Of a DNA stretch of 64,000 bases, positions 9,047 to 37,653 are shown piece by piece (position 1 is the stretch's first letter; each line of letters starts with the position of its first letter). The stretch is from Escherichia coli (GTDB lineage: Bacteria > Pseudomonadota > Gammaproteobacteria > Enterobacterales > Enterobacteriaceae). The stretch is taken from assembly GCF_024502345.1 (NCBI RefSeq), contig NZ_JALDNN010000001.1. One strand, given 5' to 3'. A program made the position numbers and the translations under genes. The notes below the pieces were generated by a model that saw only the letters and a list, made by a program, of their open reading frames with translations, was not told where the DNA came from and made no database searches.

Positions 9047-10375
9047 TTATGCCAGCGCATCCATCCGACGCCACATACTGGCAGCGGCTTTTCTGGCTTG
9101 TGCATAAATGGAATCGCAATCGAAGTTAAACTGACGGTCTTCATAGACCATCACACCATTGACCATTACGCTGTGAACGCTGCCTGAGCCCATACCGAAA
9201 GCGATATGCCCGGCGATATTGTCTGCCAGCAGCGGCGTCGGCGAGTTGTAATCGCAAATGGTTAAATCAGCTTTGTAACCGGCTTCCAGAAGCCCAAATT
9301 TCGCGCCAAAGTTGCGGCTCATCAGTTCGTTACCGTTAGTCAGGGCTTTGGCAAAACTGTCAGGCCACAGCGGATCACCCGCATCGCGATGTTTAAAGAA
9401 GGCAAATTTCATCTCTTCAAACATGTCCGAACCAATGCCGTCCGTTCCCAACGCCAGATTGCGGATGTCGCTAAGGTGATGGTTGTAGCCGACATGGTTG
9501 TTCATGTTTGAACGGGCGTTATGCACCAGGAACGCATCGCGCTGATTGAGTAGGGCGATGTCATCTTTCGACAAGTACAGCCCATGAGCGACCAGCGTTT
9601 TGCTGTCGATGAGATCGAATTGCGCCAGTCGTGCCAGCAGGTCTTTGCCGTACCAGTGGTGACTGTAGGAAACGTCGTAAAGGTCTTCCGCAGCGTGAAT
9701 ATGCAAACCACGGCCTGTGGCTTTCACGGCTTCACGCAGCATCTCCAGACCGGCATCCGGCACGGTAAACGGCGCGTGAGCACCGATATGTGCTTCCACC
9801 AGATACGGCTCGCTTGTCGCTTTCTTCGCCTCATCAATCAAACGGGCGAAACGGATGTTTTCTTCTACACCTTCCTGCAACTCTTTGATGCCGTTGTTAC
9901 GGTCAGTAGTTTCAAAACAGGTCATTGCGCGCAGGCCAACTTTTAAAAATGCGTCGCGCAATGTGGAGAGCGACCCGCCGATATACGCCGGAGAGGCATG
10001 GTGATCGATAACCGATGTACATCCGCTCTTAATCGCTTCCAGGGAACAAATCAGTCCGCTGTAATAGAGCGACTCTTCATCAAGGGCGCGATCGAGCCGC
10101 CACCAGAGATTTTTCAGCGTTGAGATGAAATCCGGGCAGGGGGCGATGTTTGCCATAATTCCGCGGGAAAGCCCCGAGTAAAAATGGTTGTGCGAGCAGA
10201 CAATTCCCGGCATCACAATCCGACCATGCATCTCTTTGTAGCTGGCATCGGGGTCGCGTTGCGTCAGGGCATCGCCGATAGCGACAATCACGTCATTTTC
10301 GATAGCGATATCAACGCCTTCCTGTACTTTCGCCGGGTGTAACTGCACTGCGGTGACATTCTTCAGAATCAACAT
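9047..10375 (-). CDS. ssnA: amidohydrolase-family protein (putative aminohydrolase)
   Basis: ORF 9047..10441 trimmed to MLILKNVTAVQLHP...; 442 aa; amidohydrolase HxH motif (VCSHNHFY). Confidence 0.8.
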   Translation of the reverse strand: MLILKNVTAVQLHPAKVQEGVDIAIENDVIVAIGDALTQRDPDASYKEMHGRIVMPGIVCSHNHFYSGLSRGIMANIAPCPDFISTLKNLWWRLDRALDEESLYYSGLICSLEAIKSGCTSVIDHHASPAYIGGSLSTLRDAFLKVGLRAMTCFETTDRNNGIKELQEGVEENIRFARLIDEAKKATSEPYLVEAHIGAHAPFTVPDAGLEMLREAVKATGRGLHIHAAEDLYDVSYSHHWYGKDLLARLAQFDLIDSKTLVAHGLYLSKDDIALLNQRDAFLVHNARSNMNNHVGYNHHLSDIRNLALGTDGIGSDMFEEMKFAFFKHRDAGDPLWPDSFAKALTNGNELMSRNFGAKFGLLEAGYKADLTICDYNSPTPLLADNIAGHIAFGMGSGSVHSVMVNGVMVYEDRQFNFDCDSIYAQARKAAASMWRRMDALA

Positions 10376-16922: not shown

Positions 16923-16962
16923 ATGAAAATGGCCGGATGGTATTACCCCCCCGGCCTTAAAA

Positions 16963-17895
16963 TTACTGACAAATCACCGTTCCGGTTTTGCCTTCAATCC
17001 CTTCTTTCGCTTTGCTCAATACGGTAATCAGTGCTTCACGACCTGCGCGAGAGCGAGCAAACGAGGCGGCAGCTTCCACTTTAGGCAGCATAGAACCTTT
17101 CGCAAAATGACCTTCTTCGATAAAGCGTTCAGCATCACTTAATGACAGGCGATCGAGCCACTGTTCATTCTCTTTACCGAAGTTAATGGCCACTTTTTCT
17201 ACCGCAGTCAGAATGATCAGCATATCGGCATCAATCATTTCTGCTAAACGGGCGCTGGCCCAGTCTTTATCGATAACCGCGCTGGCACCACGCAGATGGT
17301 TACCTTCACGAATAACAGGAATACCACCACCGCCAACGGTGATCACCACCTGGCCTGCATCTACCAGAGCTTTAACCGTTTCTTTTTCAATAATATCAAC
17401 CGGTTTTGGCGAGGCAACAACACGGCGATAGCCGCGACCAGCATCTTCTTTCAGAGTGTAACCCTGTTTTGTCAGTTGCTCTGCTTCTTGCTCGGTAAAG
17501 AACGAACCGATCGGCTTGGTCGGGTTGAGGAATGCCGGATCGTTAGCGTCGACTTCGACCTGAGTAACCAGCGTTGCTACCGGTTTATTAATGCCCCGAG
17601 AAAGCAGTTCTTCTCTTAAGGCGTTTTGTAGATCGTAACCAATATAACCCTGGCTTAAGGCAACGCAGACAGACATCGGCAGCATTGGCGAGTGCGCTTC
17701 AGTTTTTGCAGCAGCTTCAAAGGCCTGGTTAATCATGCCCACCTGCGGCCCGTTACCATGAGTGACGATAACTTCATGTCCTTGGGCAATTAAATCAACA
17801 ATTGCCTGAGAAGTAATTTTTACCGCTTTCATTTGTCCGGCCAGGTCATCGCCCAGCGCATTCCCGCCCAGGGCGAGAACAATTTTCTTACTCAT
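16963..17895 (-). CDS. yqeA: carbamate kinase-like protein
   Basis: 310 aa ORF with the amino-acid kinase fold N-terminus (KIVLALGGNALG). Confidence 0.8.
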   Translation of the reverse strand: MSKKIVLALGGNALGDDLAGQMKAVKITSQAIVDLIAQGHEVIVTHGNGPQVGMINQAFEAAAKTEAHSPMLPMSVCVALSQGYIGYDLQNALREELLSRGINKPVATLVTQVEVDANDPAFLNPTKPIGSFFTEQEAEQLTKQGYTLKEDAGRGYRRVVASPKPVDIIEKETVKALVDAGQVVITVGGGGIPVIREGNHLRGASAVIDKDWASARLAEMIDADMLIILTAVEKVAINFGKENEQWLDRLSLSDAERFIEEGHFAKGSMLPKVEAAASFARSRAGREALITVLSKAKEGIEGKTGTVICQ

Positions 17896-31139: not shown

Positions 31140-31169
31140 TGATCCTACCCACGTAATATGGACACAGGC

Positions 31170-32036
31170 CTAAGCGAGGTTCTGGTTTTCAAATTGTTCC
31201 GGACTGAGGCCGCCACACCAACTGTGCCGCCGCCACCGATTGTAATCACATTCGATATAATTAAACACCGTTGCCCGCATTATTTCCCGGCTGATAAAGT
31301 GTTCTCCATGGATACATTCCACTTTCAGCGAATGAAAGAAGCTTTCCACGCAGGCATTATCGTAGCAGCAACCTTTTGCGCTCATACTTCCACGCAGATT
31401 ATGCCGCTTCAGTTGCGCCTGATAATCTGCTGAACAGTACTGGCCTCCACGGTCCGTGTGAACGATAACGTTCCGGGGCCTCTTACGCCGCCACAGCGCC
31501 ATCTGCAGGGCATCGCAGGCCAGTTGCGCCGTCATGCGTGGCGACATTGACCAGCCAATAACGGCACGTGACCACAGGTCAATGACCACTGCCAGATACA
31601 GCCAGCCTTCATCTGTACGTAAGTACGTGATGTCTCCTGCCCACTTCTGGTTCGGGCCACTGGCGTAAAAATCCTGCTCCAACAGATTTTCTGACACAGG
31701 CAGGCCGTGTGCGCGGTAGCTGACCGGGCTGAACTTCCGGGAGGCCTTTGCCCTCAGTCCCTGACGGCGCAGGCTTGCCGCCACGGTTTTTACGTTAAAG
31801 GGGTAACCCTGAGCACGCAGTTCATCCGTCAGGCGTGGGGCACCGTAACGCTGTTTTGACCGGGTAAAAGCCGCGAGGACAACGCTGTCGCAGTGTTGGC
31901 GGAACTGCTGACGCGTGCTTATCCTTGTCCGCCGCTGACACCACGTATACCAGCCGCTGCGGGCCACCCGGAGCACGCGGCACATTGCTTTGATGCTGAA
32001 CTCAGCCTGATGTTTTTCAATAAAGACATACTTCAT
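31170..32036 (-). CDS. insF: IS3 transposase OrfB (DDE integrase domain)
   Basis: 288 aa ORF matching IS3 InsF ([32 protein letters not shown]...). Confidence 0.9.
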
Positions 32037-32062
32037 TTCAGGCGCTTCGCGAAGTATGTCGC

Positions 32063-33283
32063 TGTAGATTCAATTGGTCAACGCAACAGTTATGTGAAAA
32101 CATGGGGTTGCGGAGGTTTTTTGAATGAGACGAACATTTACAGCAGAGGAAAAAGCCTCTGTTTTTGAACTATGGAAGAACGGAACAGGCTTCAGTGAAA
32201 TAGCGAATATCCTGGGTTCAAAACCCGGAACGATCTTCACTATGTTAAGGGATACTGGCGGCATAAAACCCCATGAGCGTAAGCGGGCTGTAGCTCACCT
32301 GACACTGTCTGAGCGCGAGGAGATACGAGCTGGTTTGTCAGCCAAAATGAGCATTCGTGCGATAGCTACTGCGCTGAATCGCAGTCCTTCGACGATCTCA
32401 CGTGAAGTTCAGCGTAATCGGGGCAGACGCTATTACAAAGCTGTTGATGCTAATAACCGAGCCAACAGAATGGCGAAAAGGCCAAAACCGTGCTTACTGG
32501 ATCAAAATTTACCATTGCGAAAGCTTGTTCTGGAAAAGCTGGAGATGAAATGGTCTCCAGAGCAAATATCAGGATGGTTAAGGCGAACAAAACCACGTCA
32601 AAAAACGCTGCGAATATCACCTGAGACAATTTATAAAACGCTGTACTTTCGTAGCCGTGAAGCGCTACACCACCTGAATATACAGCATCTGCGACGGTCG
32701 CATAGCCTTCGCCATGGCAGGCGTCATACCCGCAAAGGCGAAAGAGGTACGATTAACATAGTGAACGGAACACCAATTCACGAACGTTCCCGAAATATCG
32801 ATAACAGACGCTCTCTGGGGCATTGGGAGGGCGATTTAGTCTCAGGTACAAAAAACTCTCATATAGCCACACTTGTAGACCGAAAATCACGTTATACGAT
32901 CATCCTTAGACTCAGGGGCAAAGATTCTGTCTCAGTAAATCAGGCTCTTACCGACAAATTCCTGAGTTTACCGTCAGAACTCAGAAAATCACTGACATGG
33001 GACAGAGGAATGGAACTGGCCAGACATCTAGAATTTACTGTCAGCACCGGCGTTAAAGTTTACTTCTGCGATCCTCAGAGTCCTTGGCAGCGGGGAACAA
33101 ATGAGAACACAAATGGGCTAATTCGGCAGTACTTTCCTAAAAAGACATGTCTTGCCCAATATACTCAACATGAACTAGATCTGGTTGCTGCTCAGCTAAA
33201 CAACAGACCGAGAAAGACACTGAAGTTCAAAACACCGAAAGAGATAATTGAAAGGGGTGTTGCATTGACAGATTGAATCTACA
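32063..33283 (+). mobile_element. IS30 insertion sequence (1221 bp) with 2-bp GC target-site duplication
   Basis: terminal repeats TGTAGATTCAATTGGTCAACGC (32063) and its complement ending ...GATTGAATCTACA (33283); flanking GC at 32061..32062 and 33284..33285. Confidence 0.9.
32125..33276 (+). CDS. insI: IS30 transposase
   Basis: 383 aa ORF (MRRTFTAEEKASVFELWKNGTGFSEIANILG...), DDE transposase. Confidence 0.9.
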   Translation: MRRTFTAEEKASVFELWKNGTGFSEIANILGSKPGTIFTMLRDTGGIKPHERKRAVAHLTLSEREEIRAGLSAKMSIRAIATALNRSPSTISREVQRNRGRRYYKAVDANNRANRMAKRPKPCLLDQNLPLRKLVLEKLEMKWSPEQISGWLRRTKPRQKTLRISPETIYKTLYFRSREALHHLNIQHLRRSHSLRHGRRHTRKGERGTINIVNGTPIHERSRNIDNRRSLGHWEGDLVSGTKNSHIATLVDRKSRYTIILRLRGKDSVSVNQALTDKFLSLPSELRKSLTWDRGMELARHLEFTVSTGVKVYFCDPQSPWQRGTNENTNGLIRQYFPKKTCLAQYTQHELDLVAAQLNNRPRKTLKFKTPKEIIERGVALTD

Positions 33284-33555
33284 GCGGCCTTTTGGAGGAT
33301 AGCCAGCTCTTCATCCCGTTCTGCCAGCTGGCGTTTGAGACGTGCAATCTCGGTAGACATCTCCAGTTCACGTTCAGAAGACGTCTGCTGATTTTGCTGT
33401 TTACTGCGCCAGTTGTAGAGCTGTGATTCATACAGGCTGAGTTCACGGGCTGCGGCAGTAACACCGATGCGTTCAGCAAGCTTCAGGGCTTCACTGCGAA
33501 ATTCAGGCGAATGCTGTTTACGGGGTTTTTTACTGGTTGATACTGTTTTTGTCAT
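33284..33555 (-). pseudogene. insE: IS3 OrfA (InsE), 3'-disrupted by the IS30 insertion
   Basis: translation MTKTVSTSKKPRKQHSPEFRSEALKLAERIGV...AILQKAA, then reading continues into the IS30 end. Confidence 0.7.
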
Positions 33556-33620
33556 GTGAGTCACCTCTGACTGAGAGTTTACTCACTTAGCCGCGTGTCC
33601 ACTATTGCTGGGTAAGATCA

Positions 33621-34231
33621 TAGATGCTACGGATATCCATATCCAGAACTTCAGCAATCTGATATGGATTATAACCAGAAACCATATACCCCATTATGGT
33701 GAATTCCATCTGAGTTAATGTGTTACCTCTGGTAAATGATAAATAACGACCAATAAATAGTTGTCTGATCTTTTCATTGGCAACATCAAGACCATCATCA
33801 TTATATATGACAGCAGATATTGCTGAGTTGTGTTTTCGCCAGTAATTAGCTAACGATTGCATATTGCGGTCGCTGACTAAAACAATCCCCATGTCAGTAC
33901 TTGCAAGATAGTCAATCCAGTCTTTTTCAAGGAATAGACGTAAAAAACTTACTGAAAAATCGACAAAAATATATCCGCTTAATCTCGCATTGTGGTTTTT
34001 AGTTAAGATACCTTCTACCACACCACGATTAAAATATGAACTTTCTTCGGGCCACATACAAAAACACGAGTTTGCGCAGTACTGCAAACGCGGTGACTCT
34101 TCTGGCATTATTTGGCAATGCATTGAGCAACTATTGCATGTAAGACTTTTATAACGACTACAAAGCCCCATGTTAAGAACCTCCCTATCCGTATATAATT
34201 GCATAATTTCATTGGTGATTGATGATGTCAA
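33621..34231 (-). pseudogene. LuxR-type HTH regulator (yqeH-like), C-terminally truncated by the IS3 insertion
   Basis: ORF 33602..34231 has a GerE/LuxR-like HTH at its C-terminus (LTQMEFTIMGYMVSGYNPYQIAEVLDMDIRSI); its last 6 codons and stop are supplied by IS3 sequence. Confidence 0.5.
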
Positions 34232-34630
34232 TACACCATGATTTTGTAATTTTGCTGGGAAAAATTGCGATTAATCTGTATTTGCTATAATTCTGATTAA
34301 GACATTTTAAAATGCATTTCTCGTTATTAAATATGATTATGTTTCACTGATTTAATCTTACCTGGTTGAGGGTGGTTCAGATAACTATCTCATGGTATGA
34401 GAATATCTATATCGCAAATTGTTTTTGAATGACCAGAAGATATCTTGCGAATCTAAGTTATGCATCTTAAATGGTCTTATTTAAGATGTTCAGATCTCTT
34501 TGTGTGTTTAACTAACTGATAATACTAGGATATGATGAGAGAAGTGATAGGGCGGAATAATAACGAATGAACATTATGAAAACTGGAATGGTTCAAAATT
34601 GTAGCAATTTTGAACCATTCACAATGGATA

Positions 34631-34864
34631 TCAGCTAAAGAACATTACCGATACGCACAGGATACCCACGATCAGCGTAATCAGATTTCCGATGGAACGC
34701 CAGGGTTTAAGCGCCGGGATCAGATACGTTGACAACGTAGGCATGATGAAAAGTATCATGGCAATGAGCGGGCCGCTGATCGCGTAAATCATCGAAATCG
34801 CGTTCGGGTTAATGCAACAAACAATGAAGGTGATCAGCGATACCAACATAATTGATAGTGCGCG
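34631..34864 (-). pseudogene. 3' fragment of a membrane transporter gene (yqeG-like), 5' part replaced by the IS903-family element
   Basis: 78 codons of hydrophobic C-terminal sequence ending at a stop codon; the reading frame upstream runs straight into the IS terminal repeat. Confidence 0.5.
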
Positions 34865-35922
34865 GGGCTTTGTTGAATAAATCGAACTTTTGCTGAGTTG
34901 AAGGATCAGATCACGTATCTTCCCGACAACGCAGACCGTTCCGTGGCAAAGCAAAAGTTCAAAATCACCAACTGGCCCACCTACAATAAAGCCCTCATCA
35001 ACCGTGGCTCCATAACTTTCTGGCTGGATGATGAAGCTATTCAGGCCTGGTATGAGTCAGCAACACCTTCTTCACGAGGCAGACCTCAGCGCTATTCTGA
35101 CCTTGCCATCACGACTGTGCTGGTCATTAAACGCGTATTCAGGCTGACCCTGCGCGCTGCGCAGGGCTTTATTGATTCCATTTTTTCTCTGATGAACGTT
35201 CCGCTACGCTGCCCGGATTACAGCTGTGTCAGCAGGCGGGCAAAGTCGGTTAATGTCAGTTTCAAAACGCCCACCCGGGGTGAAATCGCACACCTGGTAA
35301 TTGATTCCACCGGGCTGAAGGTCTTCGGTGAAGGCGAGTGGAAAGTCAAAAAGCATGGCCAGGAACGCCGCCGTATCTGGCGTAAGCTGCATCTCGCCGT
35401 TGACAGTAAAACACATGAAATCATCTGCGCTGACCTGTCGCTGAACAACGTTACGGACTCAGAGGCCTTCCCCGGGTTAATCCGGCAAACCCACCGGAAA
35501 ATCAGGTCAGCCGCCGCCGATGGCGCTTACGATACCCGGCTATGTCACGATGAACTGCGGCGTAAGAAAATCAGCGCGCTTATCCCTCCCCGAAAAGGTG
35601 CGGGTTACTGGCCCGGTGAATATGCAGACCGTAACCGTGCAGTGGCTAATCAGCGAATGACCGGGAGTAATGCGCGGTGGAAATGGACAACAGATTACAA
35701 CCGTCGCTCGATAGCGGAAACGGCGATGTACCGGGTAAAACAGCTGTTCGGGGGTTCACTGACACTGCGTGACTACGATGGTCAGGTTGCAGAGGCTATG
35801 GCCCTGGTACGAGCGCTGAACAAAATGACGAAAGCAGGTATGCCTGAAAGCGTGCGTATTGCCTGAAAACACAACCCGCTACGGGGGAGACTTACCCGAA
35901 ATCTGATTTATTCAACAAAGCC
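34865..35922 (+). mobile_element. IS903-group (IS5 family) insertion sequence, 1058 bp, no target-site duplication
   Basis: 18-bp terminal inverted repeats GGCTTTGTTGAATAAATC at both ends (34865 and, as complement, ending 35922); flanking 9-mers differ (TAGTGGCGG vs CATTCTTCT). Confidence 0.9.
34898..35866 (+). CDS. IS903-family DDE transposase
   Basis: 322 aa ORF containing ...AADGAYDTRLCHDELRRKKISALIPPRKGAGYWPGEY...; the true start may be an internal Met. Confidence 0.85.
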   Translation: MKDQITYLPDNADRSVAKQKFKITNWPTYNKALINRGSITFWLDDEAIQAWYESATPSSRGRPQRYSDLAITTVLVIKRVFRLTLRAAQGFIDSIFSLMNVPLRCPDYSCVSRRAKSVNVSFKTPTRGEIAHLVIDSTGLKVFGEGEWKVKKHGQERRRIWRKLHLAVDSKTHEIICADLSLNNVTDSEAFPGLIRQTHRKIRSAAADGAYDTRLCHDELRRKKISALIPPRKGAGYWPGEYADRNRAVANQRMTGSNARWKWTTDYNRRSIAETAMYRVKQLFGGSLTLRDYDGQVAEAMALVRALNKMTKAGMPESVRIA

Positions 35923-35942
35923 CATTCTTCTTACTTTTATGA

Positions 35943-35966
35943 CCCTGCCGCATGGCAGGGTTTTTT
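35943..35966 (+). terminator. intrinsic terminator, presumably the remnant 3' end of the deleted upstream gene (kduD in the reference arrangement)
   Basis: stem CCCTGCCGCATGGCAGGG followed by TTTTTT, 20 bp after the IS right end. Confidence 0.5.
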
Positions 35967-36133
35967 ATATCTGTAGATCATCATAATCCATATCATGGTT
36001 ATGAAATAATCCATATCAATTATCAATTAATGAACTTTATGAATTTTATCTGCTGTAAAATTAGGTGATTAATAATAATATCAATAATTCAACTTAATTT
36101 GAAAATTGGAATATCCATCACATAACGACATGT

Positions 36134-36194
36134 CGTAGCAATTTAATCCATATTTATGCTGTTTCCGACCTGACACCTGTGTGAGTTGTTCACG
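36134..36194 (+). promoter_or_regulatory. araE promoter region with AraC-type and CRP-type binding sites
   Basis: TAGCAATTTAATCCATA resembles the araI1 half-site TAGCATTTTTATCCATA; TGTGAGTTGTTCACG matches the CRP consensus TGTGA-N6-TCACA; 40 to 100 bp upstream of araE. Confidence 0.45.
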
Positions 36195-36231
36195 TATTTT
36201 TTCACTATGTCTTACTCTCTGCTGGCAGGAA

Positions 36232-37653
36232 AAAATGGTTACTATCAATACGGAATCTGCTTTAACGCCACGTTCTTTGCGGGATACGCGGCGTATGAAT
36301 ATGTTTGTTTCGGTAGCTGCTGCGGTCGCAGGATTGTTATTTGGTCTTGATATCGGCGTAATCGCCGGAGCGTTGCCGTTCATTACCGATCACTTTGTGC
36401 TGACCAGTCGTTTGCAGGAATGGGTGGTTAGTAGCATGATGCTCGGTGCAGCAATTGGTGCGCTGTTTAATGGTTGGCTGTCGTTCCGCCTGGGGCGTAA
36501 ATACAGCCTGATGGCGGGGGCCATCCTGTTTGTACTCGGTTCTATAGGGTCCGCTTTTGCGACCAGCGTAGAGATGTTAATCGCCGCTCGTGTGGTGCTG
36601 GGCATTGCTGTCGGGATCGCGTCTTACACCGCTCCTCTGTATCTTTCTGAAATGGCAAGTGAAAACGTTCGCGGTAAGATGATCAGTATGTACCAGTTGA
36701 TGGTCACACTCGGCATCGTGCTGGCGTTTTTATCCGATACAGCGTTCAGTTATAGCGGTAACTGGCGCGCAATGTTGGGGGTTCTTGCTTTACCAGCAGT
36801 TCTGCTGATTATTCTGGTGGTCTTCCTGCCAAATAGCCCGCGCTGGCTGGCGGAAAAGGGGCGTCATATTGAGGCGGAAGAAGTATTGCGTATGCTGCGC
36901 GATACGTCGGAAAAAGCGCGAGAAGAACTCAACGAAATTCGTGAAAGCCTGAAGTTAAAACAGGGCGGTTGGGCACTGTTTAAGATCAACCGTAACGTCC
37001 GTCGTGCTGTGTTTCTCGGTATGTTGTTGCAGGCGATGCAGCAGTTTACCGGTATGAACATCATCATGTACTACGCGCCGCGTATCTTCAAAATGGCGGG
37101 CTTTACGACCACAGAACAACAGATGATTGCGACTCTGGTCGTAGGGCTGACCTTTATGTTCGCCACCTTTATTGCGGTGTTTACGGTAGATAAAGCAGGG
37201 CGTAAACCGGCTCTGAAAATTGGTTTCAGCGTGATGGCGTTAGGCACTCTGGTGCTGGGCTATTGCCTGATGCAGTTTGATAACGGTACGGCTTCCAGTG
37301 GCTTGTCCTGGCTCTCTGTTGGCATGACGATGATGTGTATTGCCGGTTATGCGATGAGCGCCGCGCCAGTGGTGTGGATCCTGTGCTCTGAAATTCAGCC
37401 GCTGAAATGCCGCGATTTCGGTATTACCTGTTCGACCACCACGAACTGGGTGTCGAATATGATTATCGGCGCGACCTTCCTGACGCTGCTCGACAGCATT
37501 GGCGCTGCCGGTACGTTCTGGCTCTACACTGCGCTGAACATTGCGTTTGTGGGCATCACTTTCTGGCTCATTCCGGAAACCAAAAATGTCACGCTGGAAC
37601 ATATCGAACGCAAACTGATGGCAGGCGAGAAGTTGAGAAATATCGGCATCTGA
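36232..37653 (+). CDS. araE: arabinose:H+ symporter (MFS sugar porter)
   Basis: 472 aa; [50 protein letters not shown]...; the ORF track's extended start 36181 is rejected. Confidence 0.9.

Follow-up and report, generated by a model that had tools for sequence, protein, structure and literature searches.

The closest known counterparts of the locus analyzed here are the Escherichia coli K-12 araBAD promoter, PBAD, and the K-12 araE promoter, PE. PBAD carries the AraC half-sites araI1 and araI2, a CRP site at −93.5, and the distal half-site araO2 (O2), which lies 211 bp from I1 in the I1 orientation. The consensus for I1 is xAGCxxxxxxxTCCATA, the pattern xAxxxxxxxxxTCCATA is common to I1 and O2, and the CRP consensus is TGTGA-6 bp-TCACA (PMC11983282). 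For PE, a passage of PMC2893085, which cites Stoner and Schleif (1983), puts CRP on the upstream side of AraC, the arrangement found in PBAD.

We analyzed a 64-kb stretch of E. coli DNA (the window), in which a known regulatory system, the control region of araE, lies at a strain-specific insertion sequence (IS) junction. The element is a 1,057-bp IS903B of the IS5 family (34866-35922, + strand) whose terminal inverted repeats, GGCTTTGTTGAATAAATC, are 18 bp long and perfect. Its sole transposase ORF encodes a DDE transposase and points to araE (34898-35866, + strand). In complete E. coli genomes, elements that carry the annotation "IS5-like element IS903B family transposase" share 99.2 to 99.5% identity with this copy, which agrees with IS903/IS903B in length, inverted repeats, single transposase ORF, and 99% identity. 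On the left, IS903B truncates yqeG, of which a 235-bp 3′ remnant that includes the stop codon is left (34631-34865, − strand; identified by BLAST against E. coli O121 RM8352). On the right, the first non-IS base, 35923, directly follows the end of the element, which falls 2 bp past the former kduD stop codon.

To define the lost DNA, we used the BLAST alignment with O121 RM8352 (L001). Window positions 33625-34865 correspond to L001 1412-2652, and the window from 35923 onward corresponds to L001 from 7000 onward. Thus, 4,347 bp (L001 2653-6999) are missing, and IS903B stands in their place. The loss takes 995 bp from the 5′ part of yqeG (annotated at L001 2418-3647), yqeF, kduI, and kduD in full, and the two bases that follow the kduD stop codon. 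We found no 9-bp target duplication around IS903B (left flank, agtgcgcgg; right flank, cattcttct). In the reference genomes, 4,347 bp lie between the two flanks, so this is not a simple insertion and no duplication is expected. Flanking DNA is expected to be lost without a target duplication when an IS mediates an adjacent deletion or when two IS copies recombine. We infer that the IS903B junction arose by one of these two routes. A second IS903 copy that could have served as the recombination partner was absent elsewhere in the 64-kb window, and we therefore dropped an in-window copy as the source.

The yqeG′-IS903B-araE junction was present in 0 of 5,426 complete E. coli genomes, and the right IS903B-araE junction was absent among the metagenome contigs searched. 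In other strains, IS903B occupies other positions nearby: it lies inside yqeH in strain AHM9C68I (L085 6001-7060) and between yqeH and yqeG in strain PM4 (L002 6001-7060), in both cases in the same orientation and without the deletion seen here. The presence of IS903B within 1 to 2 kb of the site in these strains suggests recurrent insertion in this neighborhood. Across window positions 9900 to 61000 (~50 kb), the top identity to any of the 5,426 complete genomes was 99.5%, and the 25 kb flanking the junction likewise reached 99.5% at best. The DNA therefore belongs to a lineage with no near relative among these complete genomes or to a Shigella-type genome, a group outside the collection.

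We found that positions 35923-36234 are the native kduD-araE intergenic region. Because the IS and deletion endpoint lies so close to the kduD stop codon, 312 of the 314 bp were kept. The region is 314 bp long in both K-12 and O121, and the 312 bp in the window align to it without gaps. Compared to K-12, 306 of 312 bases are identical, with substitutions at 35970, 36017, 36068, 36080, 36136, and 36180; compared to O121 RM8352, the single substitution is at 36068, in an unconserved spacer. Among the 5,426 complete genomes, 5,414 carry the region at 95% identity or higher, in each case ahead of araE. In E. coli FELIX_MS78 (L087 3498-3898), only the first 156 bp match, up to about 36079; the kduD-araE gap in this strain is 401 bp rather than 314 bp, with the AT-rich spacer or promoter altered, possibly by engineering.

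The araE coding sequence (36235-37653, + strand) is intact, starts with ATG, encodes 472 amino acids, and is annotated as araE in all matching genomes. The protein is exactly WP_000256437.1 of O121 RM8352 and differs from that of K-12 by V472I. PE therefore precedes an intact gene for the arabinose:H+ symporter at the orthologous locus, and ygeA-lysR-lysA follow araE as in the reference genomes. A Shine-Dalgarno sequence, AGGA (36227-36230, + strand), lies in GGCAGGAAAAAATG, which is conserved in the alignment described below. The window shares with K-12 PE (Stoner and Schleif, 1983, as cited in PMC2893085) the locus, the order CRP-AraC-RNA polymerase, the upstream terminator, and araE-ygeA-lysR-lysA. 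The window differs from K-12 in having IS903B upstream instead of kduD and in the 2 bp lost from the intergenic region. Neither araC nor the remaining ara regulon is in the 64-kb window. An Rfam scan of 34500-36600 matched no family and gave one subthreshold chance match inside the IS, and we dropped a known structured RNA at this region.

To determine which positions of the control region are constrained, we scanned species-representative genomes for AraE and obtained 80 loci (78 to 100% protein identity). We aligned the upstream regions of 23 of the 80 loci with those of the window and K-12, giving 25 sequences from ~18 genera of Enterobacteriaceae. Only five blocks of at least 5 nucleotides were invariant: TCCATA at 35987-35992, TCCAT at 36010-36014, TCCATCACA at 36114-36122, TCCAT at 36147-36151, and CTGAC at 36170-36174. 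Shorter invariant blocks fell in the AGC of I1 (36137-36139), in the −10 element (TA..TT), and in the Shine-Dalgarno region. We found that none of the substitutions that separate the window from K-12 or O121 lies in an invariant column.

We then assigned these blocks to promoter elements, all on the + strand, by aligning PE with the K-12 araBAD promoter. The two promoters are collinear from the CRP site to the −10 element and share the order TCACA, 13 bp, TAGC-N7-TCCATA, 4 bp, a half-site ending in CCTGA, CTGAC(A/G), and TA(T/C)T(T/G)T. The CRP site, TGGAATATCCATCACA (36107-36122), reads TGGAA-TATCCA-TCACA, so that its two halves are separated by 6 bp. Its right half is perfect and belongs to the invariant block TCCATCACA. 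The site lies 13 bp upstream of I1, a spacing identical to that in PBAD, and is centered near −93 when counted from the inferred transcription start.

The half-site I1, TAGCAATTTAATCCATA (36136-36152), fits the xAGCxxxxxxxTCCATA consensus and aligns with PBAD araI1; its AGC and TCCAT are invariant in the 25 sequences. The AraC half-site-like motif pointed out in the first-pass annotation is therefore real. AGC-N7-TCCATA matched once in the 64 kb, and 31 of 100 shuffled sequences had at least one match, so the motif is not rare on its own; the match in the window occupies the orthologous I1 position. The half-site I2, TGCTGTTTCCGACCTGA (36157-36173), begins 21 bp after I1, directly downstream of it. 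It aligns with PBAD araI2 (TAGCGGATCCTACCTGA), its CCTGAC is conserved in the alignment, and it overlaps the −35 hexamer, CTGACA (36170-36175), whose CTGAC is invariant and whose PBAD counterpart is CTGACG. The −10 hexamer is probably TATTTT (36195-36200), judging from its alignment with the PBAD −10 element TACTGT and the invariance of TA..TT. Escherichia has a −35/−10 spacer of 19 bp in PE; several other genera have one of 18 bp, the length also found in PBAD. By analogy with PBAD, transcription would start at about 36207. The window and O121 have TAGC at the start of I1 (position 1, 36136) and TGTGA in the spacer (36180), whereas K-12 has CAGC and, with C in place of T at 36180, CGTGA. Either form of I1 is common among the genera, so the TAGC/CAGC difference is probably neutral.

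Taken together, these data suggest that 35923-36234 is an unaltered kduD-araE control region beside IS903B and that araE is very probably regulated as in IS-free strains. This reading of the sequence agrees with the proposal in the first-pass annotation that the deletion spared araE control: the terminator, CRP site, I1-I2, −35 and −10 elements, and Shine-Dalgarno sequence are all kept. Downstream of IS903B, the order is the kduD terminator, two TCCATA boxes, an AT-rich spacer, PE, a predicted leader of ~28 nucleotides, the Shine-Dalgarno sequence, and araE. As established for PE and PBAD, arabinose-bound AraC on I1-I2 together with upstream cAMP-CRP would recruit σ70 RNA polymerase. Upstream transcription, which would now come from the IS903B transposase gene instead of kduID, would stop at the same terminator. 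Since no conserved element carries a mutation and the terminator remains in place between IS903B and PE, araE should behave as in IS-free strains. The deletion of yqeF, kduI, kduD, and most of yqeG spared the control region; thus, low-affinity arabinose uptake should remain inducible. If an element that influences PE existed inside kduD, it would have been lost with the deletion.

Two of the five invariant blocks lie well upstream of the promoter. The direct repeats that had been noticed there are genuine: AATCCATATCA occurs at 35985-35995 and 36008-36018, and the full repeat, ATAATCCATATCA, occurs at 35983-35995 and 36006-36018, 23 bp apart. Each repeat overlaps a 17-bp candidate araO2-like half-site on the + strand. 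Distal box 1, GATCATCATAATCCATA, is at 35976-35992 (core TCCATAT, 35987-35993), and distal box 2, TTATGAAATAATCCATA, is at 35999-36015 (invariant core TCCAT, 36010-36014). We found three copies of the 10-mer TAATCCATAT within 170 bp, all in one orientation (35984, 36007, and, within I1, 36144), and the cores of all three are invariant across genera. Measured to the I1 B-box, box 2 is 137 bp and box 1 is 160 bp upstream. In logos anchored on the distal boxes, there was no AGC box, and half-site position 2 was A, a feature common to araI1 and araO2. Each box therefore has what characterizes an araO2-type sequence, namely, a TCCATA B-box, A at position 2, and the I1 orientation, at a distance from I1.

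We also compared the spacing of the boxes among loci. In 56 of the 65 loci with a recognizable I1 and −35, the two boxes are 23 bp apart; in one Raoultella genome, they are 33 bp apart. Buttiauxella and Mangrovibacter have a single box, 152 to 154 bp from I1. Box 2 and the I1 B-box are separated by 137 to 139 bp in 45 loci and by 127 to 129 bp in 12; intermediate values occurred neither for this distance nor for the spacing between the boxes. The distance classes thus differ by ~10 bp, although few independent indel events underlie them.

The distal boxes are most likely additional AraC half-sites of the araO2 type, a reading that we draw from their conservation. An alternative is that the ATAATCCATATCA repeats are not AraC sites but a neutral duplication, part of a signal that follows the kduD terminator, or the target of another protein. 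Several observations are in line with this: the boxes lack the AGC A-box, they are 23 bp apart rather than 21 bp as for I1-I2, and the few indels behind the distance classes weaken the argument from spacing. In addition, our literature search, which covered secondary statements, returned no paper describing AraC binding at the distal boxes, and a search with the site sequences was also empty. In contrast, whereas the flanks of the boxes are randomized, their TCCAT(A) cores show no variation in ~18 genera, which rules out neutrality. The boxes also share their orientation and the 10-mer TAATCCATAT with the I1 B-box, have the A at half-site position 2 found in araI1 and araO2, and shift relative to I1 by steps of ~10 bp. 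Furthermore, in an AraC ChIP/qPCR study, araE was one of the known targets tested during growth without arabinose, and ydeN alone was marked as arabinose dependent (PMC3738151); the listing of araE under this condition would fit binding to I1 plus a distal partner half-site. On balance, we regard an origin unrelated to AraC as possible but doubtful, and we favor AraC half-sites.

If the boxes are AraC half-sites, they may constitute an unrecognized operator, similar to araO2, that loops to I1 and keeps PE off in the absence of arabinose. We put this forward tentatively and consider it unlikely. Like araO2, the distal TCCATA half-sites of PE share the I1 orientation and have no AGC. PE differs from PBAD in having two distal boxes, 137 and 160 bp from I1, where PBAD has one O2; PE also has neither a divergent araC gene nor O1, and looping at PE is a proposal. 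If it is true, PE would be loop-repressed like PBAD, in all E. coli and most Enterobacteriaceae and thus beyond this strain. Proof of a distal operator would make looping a general property of AraC-controlled promoters, not one confined to araBAD. The conserved distal boxes merit a study of their own, independent of this strain.

We noted a further TCCAT, the fourth in this orientation, at 36114-36118. It lies in the 6-bp center of the CRP site, which is normally unconstrained, 33 bp before the TCCAT of I1, and it is invariant in the 25 sequences. Judging from its sequence, this TCCAT may be an AraC-like half-site that overlaps the CRP site, perhaps as part of the distal-box system.

We next considered whether IS903B alters araE expression, by read-through past the terminator, from a hybrid promoter at the IS end, or through the changed upstream context, with the IS end now 61 bp from the distal boxes. 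The transposase ORF does face araE, the IS end contains TTCAAC, which weakly resembles a −35 element and is followed 18 bp downstream by TTTTAT, and the distal boxes, although intact, begin only about 55 to 65 bp from the IS end. Against this, a complete and strong terminator stands between IS903B and PE. The kduD intrinsic terminator (35941-35968, + strand) consists of a 9-bp stem and a 4-nucleotide loop (hairpin, 35941-35962) followed by a T-run, with the hairpin and T-run, GACCCTGCCGCATGGCAGGGTTTTTT, at 35941-35966. It was the sole terminator-like site found by a terminator scan of 35700-36300, and its predicted RNA fold has an energy of −18 kcal/mol (z, −4.1 versus shuffled sequences). The GC-rich hairpin and U-run are complete relative to the reference, base for base identical to those of K-12 and O121, and 17 genera retain the hairpin, 3 of its 8 pairs showing compensatory changes. 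The first-pass annotation had recognized this hairpin (as 35943..35966) but called it a terminator remnant; because of its identity to K-12 and O121 and the conservation of the hairpin, we call it complete.

The same terminator separates araE from kduID in every other E. coli strain, and the doubt raised earlier about the insulation of araE from the IS therefore has no basis in the sequence. We also scanned the + strand from the IS interior to PE for outward promoters. In this crude scan, which misses PE itself, no site reached 9 of 12 consensus matches, and we set aside a consensus-level promoter, outward or hybrid, at the end of the IS, although a weak one may be present. Promoter-like sites on the minus strand (36103 to 36075 and 36019 to 35992) were no commoner than in shuffled sequences and lay in unconserved columns or merely overlapped box 2; we set them aside as well. 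The IS903 transposase promoter is weak. With the conserved elements of PE all untouched, we think it improbable that IS903B changes araE expression, and we retain normal regulation of araE as our reading.

Finally, we examined the string TGTGAGTTGTTCACG (36180-36194, + strand), which the first-pass annotation had taken for a CRP site and which would place CRP downstream of the AraC site. This string lies in the promoter spacer between the −35 and −10 hexamers, and we rejected it as a binding site. Among the 80 upstream regions scanned, TGTGA-N5-TCAC matched only in the window and O121; the string is absent in the loci L005 and L006. That it is a functional CRP site can be dismissed almost entirely, because, although TGTGA and TCAC are present in inverted orientation, they are 5 bp apart instead of the 6 bp of the consensus (PMC11983282), K-12, the strain in which PE was characterized, reads CGTGA and the sister Escherichia L005 reads TATGCG at this position, the columns are the least conserved of the core promoter, CRP bound between −35 and −10 would block RNA polymerase rather than activate it, the published position of CRP, as given in a passage of PMC2893085, is upstream of AraC as in PBAD, and a correctly spaced, invariant CRP site is available at 36107-36122. 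For annotators, the corrected map of PE has CRP upstream of AraC, not downstream.

Elsewhere in the window, we observed further rearrangements. A 1,221-bp IS30 (32063-33283; 383-amino-acid transposase ORF, 32125-33276) is nested in an IS3 (~31150-33620), with a 2-bp overlap at its junctions. This IS3 stands between a truncated ygeQ and yqeH, where the ETT2 cluster is mostly missing; strain 1919D3 has the IS3 without IS30. In the yqeB-arcC intergenic region, the window has 137 bp fewer than strain 1919D3 at ~16930-16973, where the two BLAST segments overlap by 44 bp, which suggests the loss of a repeat unit.
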